Assembly: GCA_042563375.1 (NCBI GenBank)
Contig: JBHPMF010000004.1
Coordinates: 14,902 to 78,901 of the forward strand
Source: Elusimicrobiota bacterium
GTDB taxonomy: Bacteria > Elusimicrobiota > Elusimicrobia > JACQPE01
DNA length: 64,000 nucleotides
Reading direction: 5' to 3'
Shown here piece by piece: positions 3,895 to 39,443 of this stretch (position 1 is its first letter; the number at the start of each line of letters is the position of its first letter). Position numbers and translations under genes: made by a program. The notes beneath the pieces were generated by a model, which searched no databases, was not told the origin of the DNA, and worked only from the letters and a program-made list of their open reading frames with translations.

Positions 3895-4461
3895 TTACAC
3901 TTCCTGCGCTTCGCCTTTCAATCTTTGCCACAAATCTTCAACTTCCAGCGTCTTTGCCCAACGCTCCAGATAAGTCATGTCCAGTTTTTCACACTGAACC
4001 TCATAGACCCTGAGAGCATCAGTAAACTGTTTTTCACTGCCTCCGGACAATCTTGCCCATCGTAATTTCGCCAGGATCGTGTCTTCCGGACTTGACACAG
4101 ACATTTTTATGCCCATGAATTGCTCGGTGCATCTGCGCGAAAAACGCGACTGATCGAAACCCTCTCCGGTCAACATCCAAAAATCCACTTTATCGCCGGT
4201 ACTGATATTGATCATGTTAAACATGTCTTGCTTATCGATTGCGTCAAAAATGCTGTTTTTATCCAAATAATAATCAGGCGATGAAAAAGCCTCTGTTAAT
4301 CTCATAACCTGAGTTCTGTTAATCGCGATGACCATGTCAATATCATGCGTAGACCGAGGCTCGCCCTGCAGGCTCGAAACAATGGAACCTGTTATCATAT
4401 ATTCGATTCCCGCCTGATCCAGGGCTTGAATAACATGCGTCAATAATTCCTGTTGTGACAT
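3895..4461 (-). CDS. minimal nucleotidyltransferase-fold protein (uncharacterised family)
   Basis: 188 aa. IEYMITGSIVSSLQGEPRSTHDIDMVI matches the G-S...D-x-D pol-beta-type NTase signature. It overlaps the small upstream ORF by 22 nt. Confidence 0.5.
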   Translation of the reverse strand: MSQQELLTHVIQALDQAGIEYMITGSIVSSLQGEPRSTHDIDMVIAINRTQVMRLTEAFSSPDYYLDKNSIFDAIDKQDMFNMINISTGDKVDFWMLTGEGFDQSRFSRRCTEQFMGIKMSVSSPEDTILAKLRWARLSGGSEKQFTDALRVYEVQCEKLDMTYLERWAKTLEVEDLWQRLKGEAQEV

Positions 4462-4655
4462 TTATCCAATCGCTCCCAGAGCTTCTTGTTAAATTCCTCG
4501 GCATTAATATCCGGGAACCTCTTGCGTAAACCATAAATAAAAAGTTCCCTGGTAAATTCAGTTAATTCAAATGCCTTTCGCAATCTTTTCTCGGGAGACA
4601 TCCGGCGAAGCGCGCCTATGTAGACACTGTGATTTGGACGATGCTTGATATCCAT
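4440..4655 (-). CDS. small helical protein, partner of the NTase-fold gene (possible toxin-antitoxin-like pair)
   Basis: 71 aa, basic and predicted helical (RRMSPEKRLRKAFELTEFTRELFIYGLRKRFP). Its stop lies inside the start region of the NTase gene. No recognisable domain. Confidence 0.4.
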   Translation of the reverse strand: MDIKHRPNHSVYIGALRRMSPEKRLRKAFELTEFTRELFIYGLRKRFPDINAEEFNKKLWERLDKCHNRNY

Positions 4656-4681: not shown

Positions 4682-6193
4682 TCATCCGCGAATAACCGTC
4701 TCCTTGTCTGCACCTTCAGGCTTATTCCCGCAAGCTTGCTTTTTATTAAAGTCTGAAAGGTGTCCCACAACAGCCTTTCCGGCTCTGTAGAAAAATCTGA
4801 TATCATCCACGCTCCTGATTGAGACAAGTTTTTTCATTATGAACTTCGGCGTAATAAATGATCTATAAAGCCCCTGTGTAAGACCCATAACCTCATCATC
4901 AGGCATAGGGCATTTCATGACAGGCTCTCTCATGTCATAGCGGGCCCAGTCCCTGGTCTTAAGCCAATCATTGTCTTCGCATTCCTTAAAAAGCCTCGTC
5001 CCCGGATATGGGATAACGATCGTTGCCTGGAGAGTGTTTATCCACCCGCGCCTGAAAAGGTCTTTTGTCATCTCGATCGTGGCCATTGCTTCATCGCGCG
5101 ACTCCCATGGGTATCCGACCATGCATGTCGCATGAGGTTCAAGCCCTGCCTGCTTTGCCATGCGCGCGGTTTCTGCCATTGCGTGTTCCTTATGGCCCTT
5201 ATTGATCCTGTCAAGCGTGGCTTTATTCGCTGATTCAAGCCCATAAAGCACGAACCTGAAACCTGCTTTACCCATTAGATCGTATTCTTCCTGGCTCAAG
5301 GCTCCGGGCCTCATATTGCACCCGATCTTAACGCGCTTGTTCAAGCCTCTTTCTATCATTCCATTGCAGAACTTTTTAAGCCACCCGCCTATGGGAAAAG
5401 TGCCTGTATCATCGAATACTTCCCGTATCCCGTACTTGCTCACAAGCATCTCGATCTCATCCAAAAGACTCTCCGGGGTACCCACGCGAAAACTCTTAAA
5501 TGTATTCGTCCATGAGCAGAAAGTGCATCCCCCGCCGGTCCTCCACCAGCAATCCCTGCCGATCATCGTATATGCTCCGGGCAGATATTTGAAATTACCG
5601 TTCTTATGCGCGTAGAGCTCCCACTGGGTCAAGTCCCTATCAATGGGCAGCACGCCCTTTAGATCACGCTGCTTAAACGGCCCTGTATTGCCGATGCTGC
5701 CATTTTCTTCTCTGAAATATACTCCGTGATCAAGGTCCGCGTTCTTTGCCATGTGGTCCGCGATATTAGCCAAACCAAAATCAAAATCCCCGCCGCAAAG
5801 CACAAAATCTGCTTTTGAATTTTCCATGGACTCCTCAGGCAGCGCTGTGACATGGTCGCCCATAAGAACGAATCGCGTCTTAGGGCTCATGGCCTTAAGA
5901 GAATCTATCCAGCGCCAATACTGCCCTATAACAGGAGTTTTGGCTTCAATGGCCACCATGTCAGGCTTAAAATCCATGAGATCATTTATGAATTCCTTGT
6001 CGCTTTTCTCACTCGCTATCGCGTCAGCCCATGCAACATCATGCCCCATGTTCTTAAGCATGGTTGCGGCATATGCCGGGAGCATGGGATAGATATATGT
6101 CGGGTTACTGAAGTACTGGAATTGCCTGTTTTGAGAAAGCAGCGGAACGCCCTTGTCAGTGGGCAGCGGGGGGTAAGCGATCATTATCTTCAT
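4682..6193 (-). CDS. B12-binding-domain radical SAM enzyme with a non-canonical cluster motif
   Basis: 503 aa. The N-terminal Rossmann-like cobalamin-binding region (MKIMIAYPPLP...DMVAIEAKT...VLMGDHVTALPEE) is followed by a TIM-barrel rSAM core. The Cys triad reads DCWWRTGGGCTFCSW (CX7CX2C). Confidence 0.8.
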   Translation of the reverse strand: MKIMIAYPPLPTDKGVPLLSQNRQFQYFSNPTYIYPMLPAYAATMLKNMGHDVAWADAIASEKSDKEFINDLMDFKPDMVAIEAKTPVIGQYWRWIDSLKAMSPKTRFVLMGDHVTALPEESMENSKADFVLCGGDFDFGLANIADHMAKNADLDHGVYFREENGSIGNTGPFKQRDLKGVLPIDRDLTQWELYAHKNGNFKYLPGAYTMIGRDCWWRTGGGCTFCSWTNTFKSFRVGTPESLLDEIEMLVSKYGIREVFDDTGTFPIGGWLKKFCNGMIERGLNKRVKIGCNMRPGALSQEEYDLMGKAGFRFVLYGLESANKATLDRINKGHKEHAMAETARMAKQAGLEPHATCMVGYPWESRDEAMATIEMTKDLFRRGWINTLQATIVIPYPGTRLFKECEDNDWLKTRDWARYDMREPVMKCPMPDDEVMGLTQGLYRSFITPKFIMKKLVSIRSVDDIRFFYRAGKAVVGHLSDFNKKQACGNKPEGADKETVIRG

Positions 6194-6252: not shown

Positions 6253-9200
6253 TCAACCTACCACTTCCCCCGTATCAATGTCATTATTAAGATGCGCGCT
6301 CTCATAATGTTCATAGCGCTCTTTAACAGGCTCGATAAGGCCCCTTAAAAAGTGGATCCCGTAGATAATATGCGTTGAAAGTATGCCCGGCGCTGTCAGG
6401 AATCCCACGTACACGCTTTTCTCGGCGATCGCGGCTCTGGCCATGTCGAATACGAGTCCTGCCAGGTACATTAGAGTAACGCCTAAAAATATCTTCTGGA
6501 ACAACGCGGACATGCTCGAAGCCGCTGTCAAGAATACAAGGCACATGACGAATATGCTGGGCGCAGCATAGGATATCCTTCTTGATGTTTGAGGATAGAG
6601 CTTCCAAAACTGCCCGCGGCAGAACCCGTAGCGGCTCACCTGCGAAAGATGTTCTTTGAATAACGTCCTTCTGTGATGCCACACAAAGACTTCCGGATCA
6701 TAGATTATCTTCTTGCCGGAACGCACGATATCAAGACAAAGCTTTGTATCCTCTCCCGGCCAATACTTCGTCTGAAAACCCCCGAGAGAATCAAACAGGT
6801 CTTTTCTTATGAAAAAATTCACCGACGGGAAATCATCAACCAGCCTTGACTTGCCCGGCCTGTACCGGTTCGCGCAGAATCCGCCTCCCATTACAGTGGC
6901 GAACACCGCGCCTGAGGCTTTTTGCCATATATTGTTCGATTCAGGGGTGACAGCCGGTCCGCATACAGCGCCCACTTGGGGATCCGCAAAATGCCTTACA
7001 GCTTTATCGAACCAGTCAGCTTTAGGATAAGCATCATCATCGAGAAAAGCCAGGATCTCTGCGCTCGCGTGCTTAAAAGCCATGTTGCGCTTTGTCGCCG
7101 GATCCACCGCTCCGGTTGCGATCACGCGCGCATGCGCAGCTGTCCTTATTTCCGGAGTGAAATCATTCGCGGATATTTCATCAGGAAGGATTATGATCTC
7201 GTAATTTTTGTAATCAGTGCCTGTGAATTTAGAAAGAGATTCCGCTATATACGCGTTGATCCTCTTGACCGGGATAACAACGGAAACACTGGGCATATAA
7301 TTCGCGCAAACACTGCCCTCGGGAATGCTCCATTGCTTATCAATGCCCCTTTGCTTGATGAGCATCAGCACATTTATCACCAGGATCCCGGCCCCGACAC
7401 CGCCTACGATATAGAGCACAGAAGCCAGTGTATCGTGAAACAGTATTATAAGCACTGCCTCAAGAATGACTCCCGCTAAAAACGTCCACACAAAACTAAC
7501 GCGTTTTACAGCGTAATTGAAATTCATGATGATCTGAAGGAGGGCATACGGAAGCATGGCAAAGCTGAAAAGCCCGAGGATGGATGCCCCTTCGGGATAT
7601 CCTGACCCCAGAAGCACCCTCATGAACAATCTCGGAGCGATCGCGAAAGCCATGGCGCCTATGGTCGAGATTATTCCGGAAAGGACCAGGCCTTTCCTTA
7701 AAACGCCTGCGGCGCTTCCGGATGAAGCATTGACCCCTGAGGCAATGGGTAAAAGCACTGCCACGATACAACCGTTAACGAATATTATGGAGCGTGCCAG
7801 CACAGCCGCGGCCGCGTATTGCCCTGACAAATGCGATGAGAAATAATGCTTGACCAATATCATGTCAAGCCCGATAAAAAACGCGAAACACACATGCCCT
7901 ATCAATATGGGCAAACTGTATACGAGCGCCTCGGAAAAGAAACCTTTCTCTTTTTCATAGATTTTTGCGTCCATTGACGAGCGGATCCATGGCCATGATG
8001 CCACAACCAGGACGCCCAGTAATGCCGTGAGATTGGCAAACATGGCGCCGTTAAGGCCCAGGCCCACAAGAACCACAAGACCGAACCCAAGCAGAAATCT
8101 CAGGAGTCCTCCGCCTCCGCTTAAAACCCCGAAAAAGAAGAATTTATGCGCTCCCTGCAGCAAGCCCATGCTTACAGGCAGTAAAAACGACACTGCCACG
8201 ATTCCTATTGCCACATAGAACGGGAAACTCTGTTCAACATGAAGGAACTTAGCCACAAAAGGCTTTGCTGCCAAAAGCACAGCGCTCCATGCGATCGCAA
8301 GAAAGAATGCCTGAATATAAGATTTCTTGGCAAAACTCGCGAAACGCTCCATCTGTTTTAAAGCTTTGAATTCAGCGCTGTATTTGGCCACAACCGTCTG
8401 GATCGTGGCAGTAAAAGAACCCGCTATCATTGTGATCGATAATATGGAATTAAGCGCTCCGTAATCAGAGGATGAGAGGTTCCTGCTCATTGTGAACTGA
8501 TAAAAATAAGCAGCAATATTACCCACCATGGAGAACGCGAACACGATGATACTGCTTCTAAGCAGAGTATCCGTGATATCGAGCTTTGAGAACACCTTCC
8601 CCAAAACCGACATCCCGCCCCCCTGCTTTCCCTCTTTCAGCCATTCTCTTTCTTTCTCCTCCCCCCTTGAGGGGGAGGTCGGGTGGGGGGTTTCCGCTAT
8701 CCCCTGCTGCCCGGCGCTCGAGTGAGCCCCATTGAATTTCCCGCGCTTCCTGTAAATCCCCTCTAGCCTGTCATAATAACGCACGATATAGAGCCTATAG
8801 AATATCGCCAGAGTATCAATGCCTGTGCGAAAATAATCACCTGAACTGATGCGCCCCCATTTTTTTCTCCTGCTGAATGTCAACACAACAGGAGCTTCCG
8901 ATATCCTGAAACCCCAGTGATGGGCATTGGCAAGCATCTCAACGTCAAATGCCCATTTCTTACTGAGGATCAAGGGGAACACCTTATTAAGGACTTTTCT
9001 CTTGTAGATCTTTAAGCCTGATTGCGTATCTTTTAACGGCAGATTAAAGAAAACTTTCAGGAAAAACGCGTATACCCTGCTTGCGATCTTGCGCATAAGC
9101 GGGTATTCTATCTCGGAGAATGGGTGGAATTTCGATCCAATGACCACGTCAGCATTCTCCCGCCTCATAACATTAAAAAGCACGCGCAACTGGGCAGGAT

Positions 9201-9564
9201 GAAGCTCAAGGTCAGAATCCAGAAAAACTATGACTTGGCCCGTCGCACGCTTAAAACCCTCTTTGAGAGCATGTCCCTTGCCTCTGTTGCGCAATATGTC
9301 AACAGAAGTGACCATGCTGTATTCTTTTGAGATCCTTTCAAGCTCCTGCGAGGTATTATCGATCGAGCCGTCATTAACAACCACAAGCTCATAATCAGAT
9401 GCTAATTCTCCGGCGCACTTGAGTGTTTCCTGGATGTTCTTATAAATATGGCTCCCCTCATTATGCGCAGGCATGATAACAGAGAGCTTGCCAAGAAAAT
9501 CAGCTCGCTTCTTAAAATGTTTCTTGTTTGTTTTTTGAGACTTTGCGTTGATTACTGTATCCAT
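6253..9564 (-). CDS. tri-modular envelope protein: GT2 (Dpm1/GtrB-like), Wzx/MurJ-type polysaccharide flippase, and membrane-anchored synthase-like GT2
   Basis: 1103-aa uninterrupted ORF. The N-terminus has LSVIMPAHNEGSHIYKNIQETL...VVVNDGSIDNT...FLDSDLE. The middle has about 12 hydrophobic helices typical of oligosaccharide flippases. The C-terminus has VSVVIPVKRINAY...AFLDDDA...PGEDTKLC...QVSRYG (QxxRW-like) plus C-terminal TM helices. Confidence 0.75.
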   Translation of the reverse strand: MDTVINAKSQKTNKKHFKKRADFLGKLSVIMPAHNEGSHIYKNIQETLKCAGELASDYELVVVNDGSIDNTSQELERISKEYSMVTSVDILRNRGKGHALKEGFKRATGQVIVFLDSDLELHPAQLRVLFNVMRRENADVVIGSKFHPFSEIEYPLMRKIASRVYAFFLKVFFNLPLKDTQSGLKIYKRKVLNKVFPLILSKKWAFDVEMLANAHHWGFRISEAPVVLTFSRRKKWGRISSGDYFRTGIDTLAIFYRLYIVRYYDRLEGIYRKRGKFNGAHSSAGQQGIAETPHPTSPSRGEEKEREWLKEGKQGGGMSVLGKVFSKLDITDTLLRSSIIVFAFSMVGNIAAYFYQFTMSRNLSSSDYGALNSILSITMIAGSFTATIQTVVAKYSAEFKALKQMERFASFAKKSYIQAFFLAIAWSAVLLAAKPFVAKFLHVEQSFPFYVAIGIVAVSFLLPVSMGLLQGAHKFFFFGVLSGGGGLLRFLLGFGLVVLVGLGLNGAMFANLTALLGVLVVASWPWIRSSMDAKIYEKEKGFFSEALVYSLPILIGHVCFAFFIGLDMILVKHYFSSHLSGQYAAAAVLARSIIFVNGCIVAVLLPIASGVNASSGSAAGVLRKGLVLSGIISTIGAMAFAIAPRLFMRVLLGSGYPEGASILGLFSFAMLPYALLQIIMNFNYAVKRVSFVWTFLAGVILEAVLIILFHDTLASVLYIVGGVGAGILVINVLMLIKQRGIDKQWSIPEGSVCANYMPSVSVVIPVKRINAYIAESLSKFTGTDYKNYEIIILPDEISANDFTPEIRTAAHARVIATGAVDPATKRNMAFKHASAEILAFLDDDAYPKADWFDKAVRHFADPQVGAVCGPAVTPESNNIWQKASGAVFATVMGGGFCANRYRPGKSRLVDDFPSVNFFIRKDLFDSLGGFQTKYWPGEDTKLCLDIVRSGKKIIYDPEVFVWHHRRTLFKEHLSQVSRYGFCRGQFWKLYPQTSRRISYAAPSIFVMCLVFLTAASSMSALFQKIFLGVTLMYLAGLVFDMARAAIAEKSVYVGFLTAPGILSTHIIYGIHFLRGLIEPVKERYEHYESAHLNNDIDTGEVVG
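8655..8700. repeat. family A palindromic repeat, copy A1 (inside the GT2-flippase-GT2 ORF)
   Basis: TCTCCTCCCCCCTTGAGGGGGAGGTCGGGTGGGGGGTTTCCGCTAT. The palindromic core is CCTCCCCC-TTGA-GGGGGAGG. Confidence 0.9.
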
Positions 9565-9750: not shown

Positions 9751-11325
9751 TTAAATATTAACGTTTTTAAGCTCTTTTGACCTGGTTTGGACAGTGACAT
9801 TTGAGAGCTTGTTTCCGATCATCATATGAGCTAATGCTTTCAGAGGATAAACGCATAATTTGAATATATACAAAAAATCTTCAAATGACCTGATCTTCTT
9901 CAAAAGATTGACATAAGTGCGCATGGAAAATACTTTATGCATAAGAAATTCCCTGTAGATCCCTGAAAGAATATCCTGCAGCTGCTCATTGGAAAAATTC
10001 AGGGTTTTAAATCCATTGCCATAGGTAATGCTGATCTTATACCATTCCTCTGAAAACGGATCTATATAGCGGTCCAAATCGATCAATCCCTGTTTCTTTA
10101 CTATCTCATACACTTGCGTGCCCGGCTGAGGAACCAAAAGGTAAAAGATCGCAAAATCCAGATTCGTCTTTTTCGCGAATTCTATTGTTTTTCTGAATTC
10201 TTGCATTGTCTCATGGGGAAACCCGATAATAAAACTGGCTGCGGTCCAGAATCCCAAACTATTGGCCTGGGCTATGATCTCGGTTGCCTTATCCAGATTT
10301 ATCCTTTTCATGATCTCTTGCTGTGATTGCGGATCCCCGGTTTCTATGCCAAAACATAAGCGATAAAACCCTGCTTGTTTCATTTTTGAAAGCACATCCC
10401 TGTCCAGCGTCTCGATCGCGATACCGGTCGGAGTGACTAATTTGACATTTGTGTTGCGCTTGATCAGCTCATCGCATAGCTCATACATCCTTGCCCTTGA
10501 CACAGAACTGTTATCGTCGACAAAGTGGATTTCTCTGTATCCATAGGTATTTTTCAGGAATTCTATCTCTTCGACCACATTTCTGGCGCTGCGCATGCGC
10601 CATCTCCTGCCCCACATGAGCTTAACAGAACAAAAATAACATTCCTTGGGACAGCCCCTGCTTGTTAAGACATAACCGATGGGTTTGCGCATTAAAAATC
10701 TGTTTTTCTTATGCTCTCTTTTGACCACTTCCATGTCTCTTTCCAAAAGGTTCCAAGCCGGAAACGGGATCTCATCAAGGTTCTGGATCAGCTCTCTTGG
10801 CTGCTCCTTTATCAGCTTGTTGTCGCGCCTGTACATGGTGCCTTTTACGCCTTCCATGCTCTTATTGTCCTTATAACGCTCCAAAACCTCGCAAACGGTC
10901 TTTTCTCCTTCTCCGACCACCAGAACGTCAATATTGTCATCTTTCATTGTTTGCTCGGAAAACGTGGAAGCATGCGCGCCGCCAAAAACAACGAAAATGT
11001 CTTTTTTGAATTCTTTCACGATTTTTGCGACATTATGGGCATCTTTAAAATAAGACGTGAACATACAGGATACACCGACCACATCTGGCGAAAACTCTTC
11101 AATATTCTTTTTGATTTCCCGGTCGGATATGCCGAATCTTTTGAATTCCGAACTGACAGGGAAATTATAACTAGAGGAAACCATGCAATCCAGGATCTTC
11201 ACCGTATGCCCGCACTTCTGCAATACAGATGCAATATAACCCAGTCCCAACAAGGCTGACTTTGACGGAGGGCTGACATCAAGTTTGTGCAGGGTTATCG
11301 GCGGATATATCAATAAAACTTTCAT
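9751..11325 (-). CDS. class B (B12-binding) radical SAM enzyme
   Basis: 524 aa. MKVLLIYPP...DVVGVSCMFTSY...VVFGGAHAS is the cobalamin-binding part. The cluster motif is canonical: TSRGCPKECYFCSV (CX3CX2C). Confidence 0.85.
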   Translation of the reverse strand: MKVLLIYPPITLHKLDVSPPSKSALLGLGYIASVLQKCGHTVKILDCMVSSSYNFPVSSEFKRFGISDREIKKNIEEFSPDVVGVSCMFTSYFKDAHNVAKIVKEFKKDIFVVFGGAHASTFSEQTMKDDNIDVLVVGEGEKTVCEVLERYKDNKSMEGVKGTMYRRDNKLIKEQPRELIQNLDEIPFPAWNLLERDMEVVKREHKKNRFLMRKPIGYVLTSRGCPKECYFCSVKLMWGRRWRMRSARNVVEEIEFLKNTYGYREIHFVDDNSSVSRARMYELCDELIKRNTNVKLVTPTGIAIETLDRDVLSKMKQAGFYRLCFGIETGDPQSQQEIMKRINLDKATEIIAQANSLGFWTAASFIIGFPHETMQEFRKTIEFAKKTNLDFAIFYLLVPQPGTQVYEIVKKQGLIDLDRYIDPFSEEWYKISITYGNGFKTLNFSNEQLQDILSGIYREFLMHKVFSMRTYVNLLKKIRSFEDFLYIFKLCVYPLKALAHMMIGNKLSNVTVQTRSKELKNVNI

Positions 11326-15448: not shown

Positions 15449-15476
15449 CGGTAGTCTCAGGCTTTAGCCTGTGTCT
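15449..15476. repeat. family B repeat, half-copy B1 (inside the carB 3' end)
   Basis: CGGTAGTCTCAGGCTTTAGCCTGTGTCT, to be compared with B2 and B3. Confidence 0.8.
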
Positions 15477-18400
15477 TCTCTTCTCTCCCTTCTTCTCCCC
15501 ATTGGCGGGGAAGACTCTGCGGGGACGACAGAGCATGGATTTTTTTATTCCGCGAAGTCCAGTCACCCAAAGAACGCACCAAGATCCTTTCCTGCACCAG
15601 GCTCTTAACAGCTTTAAGAGCTGCCAAAGCTCCTGCCTGCGTTGTGATATACGGAACAGACAGATCAACGCATGCCCTTCTGATCTTATACCCATCTGAG
15701 CCTATCCTGCCGCCTCTTGGGATATTGAGCACCAGGTGGATATCCTTGTTCTTCATCATGTTTATGAGCTTGGGGTCATCTTTAAACTTTGGCACATGAC
15801 TTACTCTGATGCCCTTGCCAAGAAAGAACTTCTGCGTTCCTTCTGTTGAATATACTTCAAAGCCCAGGTCAACGAATTCCTTTGCTATAGGCGCGAAAGC
15901 TTCCTTTTGCTCACCCCTGCCTATGCTAAAAAACACATTTCCTGTTTTGGGGATCTCCTTAAAAGCCGAGGCTTGAGCCTTGTAAAAAGCTTTCCCGAAA
16001 TCTGAATCTATACCCATCACTTCCCCTGTTGATTTCATCTCAGGGCTGAGCACGGGATCGACCCCGAGAAGTTTTAAAAACGGGAAAACAGGCGCTTTGA
16101 CTGTTACAAAATCAGGCTCAAAATACTCGGCCAAACCGAGATTTTTCAGCTTTTTGCCGAGCATTATTTTTGTTGCGATCTTGGCAAGAGGCACGCCTAT
16201 AGTCTTACTAACATATGGCACAGTTCTTGAAGCCCGCGGATTAACCTCAAGAACAAGGATGTTATCACCCTTGATCGCATACTGCACATTCATCAGTCCT
16301 GATACCCTCAACGCCCTGGCAAGTTTTTTTGTGCAAGAGATAATACGGTTTTTTACCTCCCTATTGATCGTTTGAGGCGGTATAACGCAAGTGGAATCAC
16401 CTGAGTGAACACCTGCTTCTTCGATATGCTCCATGATCGCTGCCACAAAAACATCCTCTCCGTCTGATAACGCGTCAACATCGACTTCTATGGCATTGTC
16501 AATGAATTTATCAATTAGTACAGGATGCTCAGGGCTTACACTCACTGCCTCTTTCATGTATCCCGCCAATTCCCGGGCATCATCAACGACTTTCATGGCT
16601 CTGCCGCCTAAAACGTACGACGGCCTTACAAGGACCGGGTATCCTATCTTGTCCGCCACGTCACTTGCTTCCTTAAATGACATTGCAGTTCCCCATGCGG
16701 GGGACGGGATATTGATCTCGCGCAGCAAAGCCCCGAATTTTTTCCTGTCTTCTGTGATATCCGTGTTTTCAGGAGGCGTGCCTAATATCCTGATACCTGC
16801 CTTGTGTAACCTCACGGCCATATTGATCGATGTCTGCCCTCCGAACTGCAGGATCACTCCATACGGCTTCTCCGTATCAACGATATTGGCCACATCCTCA
16901 TATGTCAAAGGCTCAAAGTAAAGCTTGTCTGAAATATCAAAATCAGTGCTCACGGTTTCCGGATTATTATTCGCGATAAGCGCTTCCACGCCTTCTTCGC
17001 GCAATGCGGATACAGCATGAACGCAGCAGTAGTCAAACTCAATGCCTTGTCCTATGCGGATCGGACCTGAACCCACAATGAGCACTTTTTTCTTCTCTGA
17101 TGGCAATGATTCATCTTCTCTCTCATAGGTGGAATAAAAATACGGTGTATGGGCTTTAAATTCAGCTGCGCATGTATCAACAAGCTTGAATGTGGGTGTT
17201 ATGCCCTTTTGCTTCCTGAAATCCCGGATACGATCCTCTGTTTTTCCTGTGATATTTGCTATTTGAATATCTGAAAATCCCATTTGCTTGGCAGTAGAAA
17301 TGGAGCTCTCGTTAAATTTGATCTTCTTCCCATACTCATAGATCTGCTTGATCTTGAACAAGAACCACTCATGCACGCCCGTTAACCTGCTTATCTCCCT
17401 GATGCTCATGCCTATAGCCATTGCATCGCGGATATAAAGAAGTCTCTTGTGAGTCGGAACCTTAAGATTACGGATGATCTCAGGCTTGTCTTTGATGATC
17501 TTATCCTTGGCATCATGGCCCAGCCCGGATCTGCCCACTTCCAATGAGCGTATTGCTTTTTGCAAAGCTTCTTCAAAAGTCCTGCCGATCGCCATGGTCT
17601 CCCCTGTTGATTTCATCTGGGTCCCGATGCGCTTATCAGCGGTCTCAAACTTGTCAAAAGGCCATCTTGGGATCTTCACCACCACATAATCGATAGTAGG
17701 CTCAAAACACGCAAGCGTTTCTTTTGTCACGTCGTTCTTGATCTCATCTAAAGTCATGCCCAGAGATATTTTCGTGGCGATCCTGGCTATTGGATACCCG
17801 GTAGCTTTTGAAGCAAGAGCGGAGCTCCTTGAAACCCTTGGATTGACTTCCACTACGCGATATTCTCCGGTGTCATAGCTCATCGCGAACTGGACATTGC
17901 AAGCGCCTATTATCTTCAGCGCCCTGATGATCCTTATGGCAGCTGATCGCAATGTCTGGAAGTCATTATTGTTTAAAGTCTGGGTAGGAGCCACCACTAT
18001 GCTTTCTCCGGTATGGATACCCATTGGATCGAGATTCTCCATCGGGCAGATCACAATGCAATTATCCGCGCTGTCGCGGACCACTTCGATCTCGAACTCG
18101 CCCCAACCTTGCGTCCCCAAAATCGCCTGTTCAATAAGCACTTGGCCGATAAGGCTCAAGCGTAAACCCTGCTGCGTAAGATCAAAAAGCTCTTCATCAT
18201 TAAAAGCGATCCCGCCGCCTGTTCCGCCGAGCGTATAAGCAGGCCTTATAATAAGAGGAAACCCGTATTTATGGGCAAACACTTCAGCGCTTTGGGTATT
18301 CTCAACAGTCTTGCTTTCAGGTATAGGCTCTTTTAGCTCGTGCATGCGATTGCGGAATTTTTCTCTATCCTCGCTCTCTTCAATGCTTGATATGGAAGTT

Positions 18401-18750
18401 CCAAGCACTTGTATCTTGTGCTTTTCAAGAGCGCCTTCCTTATGCAAAGCGCACGCGACATTTAAACCGGTTTGCCCGCCCATAGTGGCAAGAAGAGCGT
18501 CAGGCCTTTCCCAGGCAATGATCTCCAAAAGCACTTTCATATTCAAAGGCTCGATATAGATCGAATCAGCCATATCACTGTCTGTCATGATGGTGGCTGG
18601 ATTGGAATTGACCAGCACGACCCTGCAGCCCTCTTCACGCAGAGCCTTGCAAGCCTGCGCTCCTGAATAATCGAATTCAGCCGCTTGTCCTATGATTATC
18701 GGACCTGACCCGATCACAAGAACTTTGTTTATATCTGTCCGCCTAGGCAT
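15457..18750 (-). CDS. carB: carbamoyl-phosphate synthase large subunit
   Basis: 1097 aa. MPRRTDINKVLVIGSGPIIIGQAAEFDYSG, two ATP-grasp halves and an MGS-like C-terminus. The last ~30 aa are encoded by repeat DNA. Confidence 0.97.
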   Translation of the reverse strand: MPRRTDINKVLVIGSGPIIIGQAAEFDYSGAQACKALREEGCRVVLVNSNPATIMTDSDMADSIYIEPLNMKVLLEIIAWERPDALLATMGGQTGLNVACALHKEGALEKHKIQVLGTSISSIEESEDREKFRNRMHELKEPIPESKTVENTQSAEVFAHKYGFPLIIRPAYTLGGTGGGIAFNDEELFDLTQQGLRLSLIGQVLIEQAILGTQGWGEFEIEVVRDSADNCIVICPMENLDPMGIHTGESIVVAPTQTLNNNDFQTLRSAAIRIIRALKIIGACNVQFAMSYDTGEYRVVEVNPRVSRSSALASKATGYPIARIATKISLGMTLDEIKNDVTKETLACFEPTIDYVVVKIPRWPFDKFETADKRIGTQMKSTGETMAIGRTFEEALQKAIRSLEVGRSGLGHDAKDKIIKDKPEIIRNLKVPTHKRLLYIRDAMAIGMSIREISRLTGVHEWFLFKIKQIYEYGKKIKFNESSISTAKQMGFSDIQIANITGKTEDRIRDFRKQKGITPTFKLVDTCAAEFKAHTPYFYSTYEREDESLPSEKKKVLIVGSGPIRIGQGIEFDYCCVHAVSALREEGVEALIANNNPETVSTDFDISDKLYFEPLTYEDVANIVDTEKPYGVILQFGGQTSINMAVRLHKAGIRILGTPPENTDITEDRKKFGALLREINIPSPAWGTAMSFKEASDVADKIGYPVLVRPSYVLGGRAMKVVDDARELAGYMKEAVSVSPEHPVLIDKFIDNAIEVDVDALSDGEDVFVAAIMEHIEEAGVHSGDSTCVIPPQTINREVKNRIISCTKKLARALRVSGLMNVQYAIKGDNILVLEVNPRASRTVPYVSKTIGVPLAKIATKIMLGKKLKNLGLAEYFEPDFVTVKAPVFPFLKLLGVDPVLSPEMKSTGEVMGIDSDFGKAFYKAQASAFKEIPKTGNVFFSIGRGEQKEAFAPIAKEFVDLGFEVYSTEGTQKFFLGKGIRVSHVPKFKDDPKLINMMKNKDIHLVLNIPRGGRIGSDGYKIRRACVDLSVPYITTQAGALAALKAVKSLVQERILVRSLGDWTSRNKKIHALSSPQSLPRQWGEEGREEKTQAKA

Positions 18751-36143: not shown

Positions 36144-39100
36144 TTAAATTCCTCTCAAGGGTTTTTGCCAGACCTGCTTAAGCCGTTCCACGTCAGTCTG
36201 GATGATCGGATTTCCTTCCAGCCCAATAACATTAAATTTCGAATCCTCCCTTACCTTGCCCACATAAGCATATGGACACCCTTTTATCACCTTTTCAAAA
36301 TTATAACGCGTGGCATCCGATACTGTCACGATAAGCCTGCTGTTTGATTCAGAGAAAAGCAGACAATCATCCGTATCAACACCGCGCTGCGGCACTTCTC
36401 TTAGATCAGCATCAATGCCCAGCCCTCCGGCAAAAGCTGTTTTCGCCAGTGCAACGCCAAGACCGCCCTTGACCACAGCGTGAGATGAATTTATCAATTC
36501 CTTGCTCATGGCTTTGCTTAACGCCTTATAGAGTTTCAATGCTTGCTTAGATTTAACTTTCGGGATCTTGTTACCTATACAAGGATCTCCCTCTGATACT
36601 TCAGAAAGAATCCTGTAATATTCCGAAGCCCCCATCTCATTAAAGGTCGTGCCTAGAACGCATACATAATCCCCGGGACGCTTGATATCAACTGTTACCG
36701 CCCTGCGCACATCATTTATCTTTGAGATGATAGATACAAGCAAGGTAGGAGGAACGGATATCGCAGGATCGACCCTGGTGAAATCATTGAACATGCTGTC
36801 TTTGCCTGATATCAATGGTATCCTGAAATCCTTCAACGTATCATAGAGCCCTTGATTAGCGCGAACAAGCTGGGCAAGCTTGTAATGCAGATGGGCAAGT
36901 TCTTCTTCGCTGTAATCCTTGAAATCTTCAGGGATCGATCTTGGCCAGCAGAAATTATCAAGACCCGCCATGAAATCAAGCCTGCCTCCTGCGGAAATCG
37001 TCTTTCGCACAGCCTCATCAACACATGAAGCAGCCATGTGATACGTATCGATATCTGAATAGAATGGATTAATACCCTCAGAAAGGACTATTCCCTCTTT
37101 TTCTCCCAATCCAGACATAAACACAGCCGCATCACTTGGCACGTCAGAATCTTTGCCCGCAAATGGTTTCACAACAGTCAAACCCTTAACTTCATGGTCG
37201 TATTGCCGTGATTTCTCCTCGATCGAGCATATATTGAGCCTTGAAAGCATGTTCTCAAGTACCGGGGTCAGATTATCAACTTTTACAGGCGTTGGCTCTT
37301 TAAAACGTTTCTGCTTCCATTTCGCGGTTAATTCATATCGCGGATATCCATTATGAAAAAAGTCCATGTCTAGAAACGCGACCGTCTTATCACCGTATTT
37401 AATATGGAACTTCCCGGAATCAGTGAACTGCCCAAGATTCGTGGCTTCGACATCACGTTTTTTAGCAAGACTCAGCAATTCATCAAGTTTTGCCTGCGGC
37501 ACAGCCAGAGTCATCCTTTCCTGAGCTTCAGAAAGAAGTATCTCCCACGGCTGACATCCTTTATATTTCAATGGGACCTTCTCCAGATCGATCTGAGCTC
37601 CATTGCTCATTTTCGCCATTTCACCCACAGAAGAAGAAAGTCCTCCTGCTCCATTATCAGTTATCGCACAATAAAGCCCTTTATCTCTTGCCTCAATGAG
37701 CATATCTGACATTTTTTTCTGAGTTATGGGGTCTCCGATCTGCACAGCCTGCATCGGAGAATCCTTATCAAGCTCAAGGGATGAAAATGTTGCTCCGTGA
37801 ATACCATCCTTACCCACCCTTCCTCCTACCATGACAATACAATCTCCGGGTGCAAGGCTTTTCTCATGAGATGGCTTCCCTGCTATTGTGCCGGGCATAA
37901 TGCCCACTGTTCCGCAGAACACAAGAGGCTTGCCGGAGTATTTTTGGTCGAATATCTCCCACCCTCTGCCATAAGGAATACCGCTTTGATTCCCTCCGTC
38001 TATTGTCCCCTGATGAACGCCCGCTCGCACTCTTCGCGGATGAAGCATGCCTGAAGGAACATCTTGTGAGAATGGGTCCCCAAAACAATAACCCCAAACA
38101 TTGATAAGCGGCTTAGAGCCCATGCCTGTGCCCATTGGATCGCGGTTCACGCCCACTATCCCTGTCATGGCTCCGCCATAAGGCTCCAGAGCTGAAGGGC
38201 TATTGTGCGTTTCAACCTTATAAACGAGATTGATCTTGTCATTGAATTTAATTACCCCTGCGTTATCTTTGAAAACCGACAATAACCAGTCAACCTTCTC
38301 CACCTTCTTTTTCTTTTCCGTCCGCGCAGACCTGGCATCCGGTATCTCATACTTCCAGTTCGAAATATCAAAATCCTGCTCCCCTGATTCCCCCTGAGAA
38401 ACATCCCCATCTGCCCCCTTTTCCTCTTCTGCTATCTCCTCCCCACTTGTGGGGGAGGCCAGATGGGGGGTCCCCGCTATTTCCTCCGTAACTCTCTTAA
38501 TATAAGTATCAAACAAAGAATCAATCTTTGTCACTTCCCCTTTCTCATCCGTAAAATCTATCAAGGCATTGAAGATCTTATGCTGGCAATGCTCAGACCA
38601 AGTCTGGGCCAATGCCTCAAGCTCAACATCGGTCGGATCTTCAGATAATCCCATCTCTTTTCTTTTCTCAAGCGCTTCGGGCTTCTTAAGATAATCCCTG
38701 ATAGCGCACATTTCCTTAAGATTAAAAGCCAGGGTCCCCTTCTTGCTTATATCGATCAATTCCTCGTCACTCACATTAAGGTTTATCTGATTCACAGTGA
38801 CCCCTTGATCACCTTTGACCCTGGGCGGATCGATCTTTAAACCATTATTCTTCCAGTCTTCAAAACTCTGAACCTCGATTCTCTCGATCAGAAGATTGGC
38901 AAGCAGTTCCTTTGAGATTCTATTGGCATCCTCCTCGGAAATATCACCTGAAATCATGTATTGTGTGGCTGTATGCACTCCTGCGTTATCAGAAAAAGCA
39001 TCCGCAAAAATATCTTTTAAGAGTTTTTTCAGGGTTGAGCCCACATTATCCGTCACTCCCGGCTTGAATGAAACAAGGATTGACCACGTGAAATTTATCT

Positions 39101-39443
39101 CCCTTTCTTCTTTTTTCTCCTCTCTTCGTAGCGCGGCAGCTTGCATGCCGCTTTCCCCTTCTCTTCTCTCTCCCGCAGATGAACTCCCCCACGACTCCTG
39201 GACAATCGGATCCGTTACTATTTCCTTTGCCTTCCCAGCCTGCTCAGGAGTCAAAACATCCAGCATAAAGACCTTTCTTGTCCTGACATCTTTGACGCTC
39301 ATGCCAAGAAAACTGTTTATCTTGTCCCTTGTAGCCACTCCAAGCGGATCCGCCACGCCTTCTTTGCATCCCACTTCGACCCAATGAAACACAGTTGCGC
39401 CCTTATCTGCGACTTGCTCTAAAACGATTGTTTTTTCTTCCAT
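36144..39443 (-). CDS. purL: FGAM synthase II with two fused N-terminal PurS-like modules (PurS-PurS-PurL)
   Basis: 1099 aa. Residues ~20-85 (...KEGVADPLGVATRDKINSFLG...VTDPIVQESW) and ~115-190 (SFKPGVTDNVGSTL...LLANLLIERIEVQSF) both look like PurS. The PurL core follows (ETHNSPSALEPYGGAMTGIVGVNRD, two AIRS-like repeats). Confidence 0.9.
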   Translation of the reverse strand: MEEKTIVLEQVADKGATVFHWVEVGCKEGVADPLGVATRDKINSFLGMSVKDVRTRKVFMLDVLTPEQAGKAKEIVTDPIVQESWGSSSAGERREGESGMQAAALRREEKKEEREINFTWSILVSFKPGVTDNVGSTLKKLLKDIFADAFSDNAGVHTATQYMISGDISEEDANRISKELLANLLIERIEVQSFEDWKNNGLKIDPPRVKGDQGVTVNQINLNVSDEELIDISKKGTLAFNLKEMCAIRDYLKKPEALEKRKEMGLSEDPTDVELEALAQTWSEHCQHKIFNALIDFTDEKGEVTKIDSLFDTYIKRVTEEIAGTPHLASPTSGEEIAEEEKGADGDVSQGESGEQDFDISNWKYEIPDARSARTEKKKKVEKVDWLLSVFKDNAGVIKFNDKINLVYKVETHNSPSALEPYGGAMTGIVGVNRDPMGTGMGSKPLINVWGYCFGDPFSQDVPSGMLHPRRVRAGVHQGTIDGGNQSGIPYGRGWEIFDQKYSGKPLVFCGTVGIMPGTIAGKPSHEKSLAPGDCIVMVGGRVGKDGIHGATFSSLELDKDSPMQAVQIGDPITQKKMSDMLIEARDKGLYCAITDNGAGGLSSSVGEMAKMSNGAQIDLEKVPLKYKGCQPWEILLSEAQERMTLAVPQAKLDELLSLAKKRDVEATNLGQFTDSGKFHIKYGDKTVAFLDMDFFHNGYPRYELTAKWKQKRFKEPTPVKVDNLTPVLENMLSRLNICSIEEKSRQYDHEVKGLTVVKPFAGKDSDVPSDAAVFMSGLGEKEGIVLSEGINPFYSDIDTYHMAASCVDEAVRKTISAGGRLDFMAGLDNFCWPRSIPEDFKDYSEEELAHLHYKLAQLVRANQGLYDTLKDFRIPLISGKDSMFNDFTRVDPAISVPPTLLVSIISKINDVRRAVTVDIKRPGDYVCVLGTTFNEMGASEYYRILSEVSEGDPCIGNKIPKVKSKQALKLYKALSKAMSKELINSSHAVVKGGLGVALAKTAFAGGLGIDADLREVPQRGVDTDDCLLFSESNSRLIVTVSDATRYNFEKVIKGCPYAYVGKVREDSKFNVIGLEGNPIIQTDVERLKQVWQKPLRGI
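38436..38486. repeat. family A repeat, copy A6 (inside purL)
   Basis: CTCCTCCCCACTTGTGGGGGAGGCCAGATGGGGGGTCCCCGCTATTTCCTC. Confidence 0.85.
39128..39152. repeat. family C repeat C2 (inside purL, in the linker between the PurS-like modules)
   Basis: GTAGCGCGGCAGCTTGCATGCCGCT is identical at 24 of 25 positions to 14369-14393. Confidence 0.85.

Follow-up and report, generated by a model that had tools for sequence, protein, structure and literature searches.

The stretch of DNA analysed here (the window, 64,000 nucleotides of contig JBHPMF010000004.1 from an Elusimicrobiota bacterium) carries on its minus strand a single open reading frame (ORF), 6253..9564, in which three modules of a glycan pathway are joined in one 1103-residue chain. 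Module N, a family 2 glycosyltransferase (GT2) of the polyprenyl-phosphate type, is followed by module F, a flippase with 12 transmembrane (TM) helices, and by module C, a second, membrane-anchored GT2, with two disordered linkers between them. The ORF listing finds no stop in this frame and agrees to the nucleotide with the first-pass annotation, which had already read it as one frame of 1103 residues. We regard the ORF as a lineage-specific fusion of three neighbouring genes, forming a conserved unit that would make, extend and flip a lipid-linked sugar, with the long chain made and working; the probability of this reading is roughly 0.6. That the fusion is real in the genome appears somewhat more probable still.

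All three modules are well folded in an AlphaFold2 model of the ORF, for which an alignment of 20 rows was the input, and the per-residue confidence (pLDDT) is about 90 in their cores. Values below 50 are confined to residues 1-21, 233-238, 271-318, 741-753 and 1084-1103, so that the disorder corresponds to the two seams, besides both termini and one short loop of N. Pfam recognizes a GT2 domain (PF00535) at residues 28-196 and another (PF13641/PF13632) at residues 758-1038. The catalytic motifs of both GT2 domains are intact, with DxD, ED and HRR conserved in the alignment with orthologues. The least credible of all the readings considered takes the ORF for a pseudogene, the decaying remnant of a glycan locus. 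Its being a singleton, the presence of a genomic repeat within its frame and the failure to find an orthologous cluster in six genomes of the same family would fit decay, but 3.3 kb without an internal stop, the retained motifs, the confident folding of three modules and the intact glycan genes on its flanks all argue against it.

In module N, the motifs DGS..D (at residue 65) and DSD (residues 116-118) can be read in the sequence, and the model has a GT-A fold with a Rossmann-like β/α core, for which the pLDDT is about 90. Its closest solved relatives in a phmmer search of the PDB are ArnC (1e-14), the Pyrococcus dolichyl-phosphate mannose synthase (DPMS; 7e-14) and GtrB (8e-11), and the same three proteins are the fold matches when the model is used in a Foldseek search. 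On these grounds N belongs with the polyprenyl-monophosphate GT2 enzymes of the ArnC/DPMS/GtrB type and not with the phosphoglycosyl transferases, and its earlier designation as an initiating transferase has to be given up. While GtrB and ArnC carry two C-terminal TM helices of their own and DPMS carries four, N carries none. No TM segment is detected by hydropathy in residues 1-333, and the C-terminal end of the module is a long amphipathic helix in the model (residues 241-273, ...DTLAIFYRLYIVRYYDR). Matches of N to NCBIfam families all fall far under the cut-offs (for ArnC, 66 bits against 529). Since N lacks a TM segment and scores below these cut-offs, it is a TM-less relative of the polyprenyl-monophosphate glycosyltransferases that would depend on a fused or separate membrane partner, and its fusion to such a partner makes sense.

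Module F is a divergent protein of the MOP superfamily, of the PST (Wzx-like) type, as judged from its homologues and its fold. Pfam gives no match for the middle 439 residues alone, even at E<=10. However, F is 27% identical over about 400 residues to proteins that bear PF01943 or PF13440, closer homologues are 34-37% identical, and six of seven such homologues (27-37% identity) reach the gathering scores of these two families. In Foldseek, the model of F aligns with MATE transporters and MurJ across some 440 columns with a probability of 1.00 and TM-scores of 0.60-0.76, normalised to the target. Twelve TM helices are found by Kyte-Doolittle hydropathy and twelve long helices are seen in the model. 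Loops rich in Lys and Arg (6, 4, 2 and 2, with 3 for the tail) alternate with loops poor in them, as is expected when both ends of the module are on the inner side of the membrane. The first-pass annotation had proposed that catalytic domains on opposite faces of the membrane would speak against one polypeptide. Because of the 12 helices and the positive-inside pattern, both GT2 domains are predicted to be on the cytoplasmic face, and by this predicted topology a single polypeptide is feasible.

Module C consists of a GT2 domain, an interface helix and three C-terminal TM helices. Alignment with relatives brings out the conserved motifs FLDDDAYP, WPGEDTK and VWHHRR (DDD, GED and HHRR), and the module is 40-46% identical to stand-alone proteins of 325-350 residues in relatives. 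The best solved sequence relative in the PDB is the membrane mannosyltransferase PcManGT (6yv7). Among NCBIfam families, MftF, EpsD and AglG give weak matches, all under the cut-off (2.8e-14 for the AglG-like family, NF041394). C had been described as a synthase-like, polymerising GT2, and this description is not supported: the QxxRW motif is missing, the corresponding stretch being VWHHRRTLF; the Foldseek match to BcsA is weak, with TM-scores of 0.25-0.29 normalised to the target; and only three TM helices follow the GT domain in the model.

Close homologues of the modules were found in seven of the 393 genomes of the class besides the source genome, in every case as separate genes. The open frames of F in these relatives have 418-554 residues, except for one of 759 residues in G031, and those of C have 334-353 residues in four genomes, 651 residues in G305 and, truncated, 274 residues in G322. 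Of the syntenic partners of F and C, the best conserved is rSAM_A, a B12-binding radical-SAM gene whose product is 36-57% identical to its orthologues in five same-class relatives (loci L013 and L023-L026). In these five genomes F comes first, in some with one other gene behind it, then rSAM_A and then C, while in the window the order is rSAM_B (a second B12-binding radical-SAM gene), N-F-C and rSAM_A. Since rSAM_A lies between F and C in all five relatives and after C in the window, C and rSAM_A have swapped places in the window. In alignments, separate F orthologues begin at the position of M318 and end 10-20 residues past the last TM helix, and separate C orthologues begin 2-7 residues ahead of the FSIVIPVK strand, which is the position of M757. 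In G031, an upstream GT2 gene abuts the flippase gene at a TAA|ATG junction.

In a search of 1.84 billion representative proteins, this ORF is the only N-F-C protein; any other would top the match list, so none is present among the representatives. Grouped by module, the representative matches are 78 C-only, 45 N-C, 21 N-only, 13 F-N, 6 F-only and 1 N-F-C. The statement of the first-pass annotation that the modules are normally separate is therefore correct for the five same-class relatives, but elsewhere N-C fusions (45 clusters) and F-N fusions (13) are common. The N-C fusions (about 560-620 residues) and F-N fusions (about 680-730 residues, some 1060-1170 with an extra GT4) consist of the same module families, with 27-47% identity to the ORF, and their annotation in public metagenomes goes no further than 'glycosyltransferase' or 'O-antigen/teichoic acid export membrane protein/glycosyltransferase'. 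Unlike the ORF, they never hold all three modules, and the order with F in the middle occurs only here. The repeat-derived linker of the ORF is missing from P0002, P0005 and P0008, the fusions that were read in detail. The two best-scoring relatives, P0019 (873 residues) and P0021 (926 residues), are N-C fusions with an additional N-terminal TPR-repeat domain of about 300 residues, which is another recurrent architecture of this family.

Further loci come from a scan of metagenomes, which yielded only one Woesearchaeota-like contig (L031) that matches the whole query at 31% identity, and from a scan of genome contigs, which yielded only two loci in Woesearchaeota metagenome-assembled genomes (MAGs) and one Paceibacterota locus. 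In the two Woesearchaeota MAGs (L027, 2241-8904, and L028, 2242-8869) F, N and C stand side by side as tightly packed genes, and the order is an AglB/STT3-like gene (with WWDYGYW), a GlcNAc-1-P-transferase-like gene, F, N, C and another GT2. This is a putative compact N-glycosylation operon in DPANN archaea that contains the same trio. Since F and C occur together with rSAM_A in five same-class genomes, and F, N and C are adjacent in Woesearchaeota, the trio is a conserved functional unit in which pairwise fusion is recurrent and the triple form is unique.

The abundance of N-C proteins raises the question of whether the ancestor was a two-domain N-C gene into which a flippase gene was later inserted. 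N-C fusions are the commonest fused form and the top-scoring relatives of the ORF (P0019-P0044, with 38-47% identity in both halves), and their two GT2 domains follow directly on one another, meeting at query residues 268|749, exactly where F is found here. Insertion is nevertheless highly improbable. F has native ends, with a Met at the orthologous start and a tail of orthologous length; C begins with a Met at the orthologous start, which is missing in the N-C fusions; and in relatives of the same class F and C are clustered but separate. FastTree trees of N and of C have weak support and intermix fused with stand-alone forms. C is placed nearest to a stand-alone protein (SH-like support 93), and N falls, with weak support, among mixed stand-alone and fused forms.

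The two seams differ in nature. Seam 1 is a 48-residue linker for which no homology to any relative was found, and it contains one copy of a GC-rich palindromic repeat, made up of a left flank atagcggaaacc, a core CCCCCACCCGACCTCCCCCTCAAGGGGGGAGG and then agaaaga. The stem, at 8658-8678, has 9 bp and a CAA loop, and the palindromic core CCCCTCAAGGGG is stop-free in every frame in the coding orientation that it has here. When the RNA of seam 1 is folded the hairpin forms, and the overall energy is unremarkable (z = 0.4). Seam 2 is the cytoplasmic tail of the flippase, which is free of the repeat and runs directly into the next Met; the repeat that had been described as joining the modules thus accounts for the first seam only. 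The codon ahead of this Met is TAT (7299-7297), which a single substitution separates from TAA or TAG. Neither seam has a promoter or terminator on the coding strand, the counts being equal to those in shuffled sequence. Both internal Met codons pointed out in the first-pass annotation, ATG 8613 (MSVLGK..., residue 318) and ATG 7296 (MPSVSV..., residue 757), are present, and its remark that the second seam has a Met resembling a gene start is borne out for both, since in the orthologue alignment they coincide with ancestral gene starts. The G-rich tract before ATG 8613, which had been likened to a Shine-Dalgarno sequence, does not discriminate, as a Shine-Dalgarno core is found at 26 of 50 gene starts in the window and is missing at the ORF's own start. 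For ATG 7296, the nearest GAGG is at -24.

Several of these features weigh against a real fusion. The internal Met codons sit exactly at the start positions of the separate orthologues. Linker 1 has the layout of an ordinary leader in this genome, with a repeat, a purine-rich spacer and an ATG. An out-of-frame TAG (+1 frame) is found at 8699-8697, where the ancestral end of N would be expected, since stand-alone N homologues end 2-30 residues past RYYDR, which is no later than the left edge of the repeat. An out-of-frame TGATAA (+2 frame) is found at 7342-7337, just past the last TM helix of F and next to the run caaagggg. As both out-of-frame stops adjoin homopolymer runs, one single-nucleotide indel per seam would restore three normal genes. 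In addition, the architecture is a singleton that comes from one fragmented MAG (180 contigs, 68% complete), and the exact protein is present in one contig only, with no independent assembly. These points would all be accommodated if the ORF were fused only on paper, through indels in sequencing or assembly or through neutral loss of stops in the very recent past, and N, F and C were made separately from their own starts. Such an explanation is rather unlikely, because it requires two errors within 1.3 kb, each hitting a tail only 30-60 nt long, in a window of 64 kb whose other genes, about 50 in number, are unbroken; for the same reason two independent assembly errors that both fuse genes are unlikely. 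By chance, an out-of-frame stop is expected within 20 codons in more than half of cases, and relatives elsewhere show that the modules work when fused. Even if the internal starts were in use, ribosomes starting at 9564 would still read through the seams. The choice that the first-pass annotation offered, between a covalent fusion and an operon with internal starts, is thus a fair one, although the functional labels it gave the modules are not supported.

The repeat itself does not decide between a real fusion and one on paper. A fuzzy search finds the hairpin core at about 257 loci in the 2.97-Mb genome, 161 of them outside ORFs of at least 200 residues, and the window has seven copies, four of which are intergenic. 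In the orientation of the coding strand here, the unit is [ctttatcac or atagcggaaacc]-CCCCCACCyrrCCTCCCCC-loop-GGGGGGAGG-agaaaga. An ATG follows many of the copies at a distance of 20-45 nt, which is why seam 1 looks like an ordinary leader, and linker 1 appears to be former intergenic or 5'-leader DNA that carried the repeat. On the other hand, 26 of the 124 copies in this orientation are read through within long open frames. A repeat within a frame is common in this genome and argues neither for nor against a real fusion; because other long ORFs read it through, the copy in the linker is no sign of a broken gene. Two further ideas about the repeat were discarded. The read-through copies are distributed over the three frames as 11, 9 and 6, so that there is no frame bias to be taken as a sign of selection, and the TAG in the left flank is not the usual stop of the upstream gene, as a stop is present in the flank in only 2 of 39 cases. 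The repeat resembles the Rickettsia palindromic elements and REP-type repeats in being a short, dispersed palindrome that is mostly intergenic and is tolerated in coding sequence as a hydrophilic, disordered peptide. It differs from them in belonging to a different sequence family and in forming, here, a linker between modules that resembles a former leader, rather than a loop of an old single gene.

Copies of the repeat were also noted in other long frames. A 1099-residue PurS-PurL ORF (36144-39443, minus strand; PurS at residues 22-76, followed by PurL domains) contains an in-frame hairpin repeat at 38433-38469 (PHLASPTSGEEIAE), between the FGAR-AT linker and AIRS domains, and has about 150 residues without domain assignment between PurS and the PurL linker domain. 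The CarB ORF (15457-18750, minus strand) ends about 10 codons past a weak (62%) copy at 15489-15525, so that the tail at its C-terminus probably derives from the repeat. Downstream in the glycan region of the ORF, a DUF2079 membrane protein and a GT4 gene (L030; contig C126, 236-1882 and 10551-11897) have in-frame copies as well, PHLTSPTRGEENRE and PHPLPQGAREKKRE. Open frames that span whole contigs, of 4040 to 9959 codons and in several cases with hairpin repeats, are found in C93 (3-29879), C137 (9434-31924 and 32011-52404), C13, C117 and C154; giant genes are one possibility, and repeat-rich DNA open by chance is another. The 1282-codon frame in contig C118 (2672-6520, plus strand) has about 13 copies, some in tandem at 36-nt steps that give PPQGGRRK-like peptides, and it looks like a repeat array kept open by its stop-free unit rather than a normal gene.

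If the ORF is a lineage-specific fusion, its origin and action can be sketched as follows. A rearrangement would have placed C directly behind F, and the two would have been fused by loss of a stop abutting the next ATG, where TAT|ATG is now read; junctions of the TAA|ATG type exist in relatives, and at such a junction one point mutation fuses two genes in frame. The stop of N would also have been lost, so that translation runs through the leader, with its stop-free hairpin repeat, into F. In the scheme that we infer for the substrates, the order of reactions, the flipping and the production of the full-length chain, N would be tethered to the membrane by F through the floppy linker of seam 1 and, at the inner face, would charge polyprenyl (undecaprenyl) phosphate with a sugar. 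C would then probably add a further sugar to the lipid-linked intermediate, or make a second lipid-linked donor, F would move the product to the outer face, and GT-C enzymes encoded downstream on the same strand (YfhO-like and DUF2079) would use the flipped product. The recurrence of covalent linkage among the relatives, in the N-C and F-N clusters, supports this scheme, as it indicates that such linkage is tolerated. A broader proposal, which we put forward only tentatively, is that the 124-kDa chain is made and works as a machine in which both GT2 domains hand their product to the attached MOP flippase, and that, together with the F-N and N-C fusions and the aglB-linked DPANN operons, it defines a conserved three-part module across both prokaryotic domains and assigns a clade of MOP flippases to polyprenyl-phosphate-linked sugars.

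Table 1. Positions of the fused ORF, its modules and seams, and the flanking radical-SAM genes in the window
Feature	Residues	Position	Strand	Remarks
N-F-C fusion ORF	1-1103	6253..9564	-	1103 residues; stop at 6253-6255; mean pLDDT 81 (AlphaFold2)
Module N, GT2 catalytic domain, polyprenyl-phosphate glycosyltransferase type	25-269	8758..9492	-	PF00535, E=1e-49
Seam 1 linker	270-317	8614..8757	-	48 residues, predicted disordered; pLDDT <50 for residues 271-318
GC-rich palindromic repeat copy in linker 1	~289-305	~8651..8700 with flanks; core 8653-8689	-	encodes IAETPHPTSPSRGEEKE
Module F, 12-TM MOP-superfamily (PST/Wzx-like) flippase	318-756	7297..8613	-	first codon ATG 8613
Seam 2, cytoplasmic tail of the flippase	744-756	7297..7335	-	13 residues (QRGIDKQWSIPEGSVCANY region); pLDDT <50 for residues 741-753; abuts ATG 7296
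Module C, GT2 with interface helix and three C-terminal TM helices	757-1103	6256..7296	-	PF13641/PF13632; first codon ATG 7296
rSAM_A, B12-binding radical-SAM gene		4682..6193	-	downstream of C; Pfam and NCBIfam
rSAM_B, second B12-binding radical-SAM gene		9751..11325	-	directly upstream of the fusion; Pfam and NCBIfam

Just downstream of the ORF are rSAM_A, a UDP-GlcNAc-3-dehydrogenase-like gene, an acetyltransferase and a GT2, and on the same strand, 13-20 kb downstream, are a YfhO-like gene (857 residues), two DUF2079 membrane proteins, a DegT aminotransferase, methyltransferases and further glycosyltransferases. Between rSAM_A and the sugar-tailoring genes there is a small overlapping gene pair (71 and 188 residues; 3895-4655, minus strand) without a Pfam or NCBIfam match. 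No oligosaccharyltransferase was found next to the ORF, and no Wzy-like gene is present among the genes scanned at the window start or in the 15 kb downstream. The Wzx/Wzy-dependent pathway was considered as a frame for the locus and set aside, as N is a monophosphate-type GT2 and not a phosphoglycosyl transferase, and the scanned genes include no Wzy-like gene. The idea of a self-contained glycan export machine, put forward in the first-pass annotation, is overstated, since the GT-C consumers (YfhO-like and DUF2079) are separate genes 13-20 kb away.

The flippases of polyprenyl-phosphate-linked sugars are mostly inferred from gene context, with no direct evidence for GtrA, AglR or the MATE-type candidates (PMC11127046, PMC3871713). 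The recurrent fusions (N-C in 45 clusters, F-N in 13 and N-F-C here) are strong Rosetta stone evidence that their parts act on the same lipid intermediate, and they can serve as single-chain targets in expression, assays and cryo-EM. The locus also exemplifies how adjacent genes become one, through loss of an abutting stop and through a leader with a stop-free hairpin repeat that has turned into a linker. Should the fusion prove to be an assembly artefact, the value that is left lies in the comparative finding of a conserved trio.

The ORF has counterparts in several known systems. In the three-component systems for extracytoplasmic glycosylation, such as GtrA/GtrB/GtrV, CsbB/GtcA/YfhO and the pentofuranose system of Citrobacter youngae with its MATE-family flippase (PMC11127046; PMC7389260), a GT2 charges a polyprenyl monophosphate on the cytoplasmic face, a flippase exports the product and a GT-C enzyme consumes it. 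N resembles ArnC, GtrB and DPMS in sequence and fold, and YfhO-like and DUF2079 genes, whose products would be the GT-C consumers, are present on the same contig. F has the MOP fold, and a flippase of the MOP superfamily has a precedent in one of these systems (PMC11127046). However, the three-component systems consist of separate genes and mostly have small flippases of the GtrA/SMR type, whereas here synthase and flippase share one ORF, to which C adds a second membrane GT2.

Precedents for a synthase and a flippase in one chain are MprF and archaeal AglD, in which a dolichyl-phosphate sugar synthase (GT2) is joined to a predicted flippase domain of the MprF type (PMC8131360, PMC5898192). 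Like the role proposed for the ORF, MprF and AglD combine in one polypeptide the modification of a membrane lipid on the inner leaflet and its subsequent translocation. The ORF differs in having a 12-TM MOP/PST flippase instead of an MprF/COG0392 domain, another domain order and a third catalytic module. Likeness to the Agl N-glycosylation pathway of Haloferax volcanii (AglJ, AglG, AglR and AglB), whose genes are unfused (PMC3871713), is seen in all three modules: N has a weak match to AglJ (TIGR04182, 1e-15) and C its weak match to AglG, both far below the equivalog cut-offs, while F is Wzx-like, as is AglR. The Woesearchaeota homologues of F, N and C, which directly follow aglB and a GlcNAc-1-P transferase, resemble this pathway as well; the ORF differs from it in its bacterial host and its fused genes. 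Fusion of functionally linked glycan-pathway genes, including synthase-flippase fusions, is thus known, while the triple fusion, the flippase in the middle and the repeat-derived linker are new. The more durable result is the conserved trio of N, F and C with its recurrent pairwise fusions.

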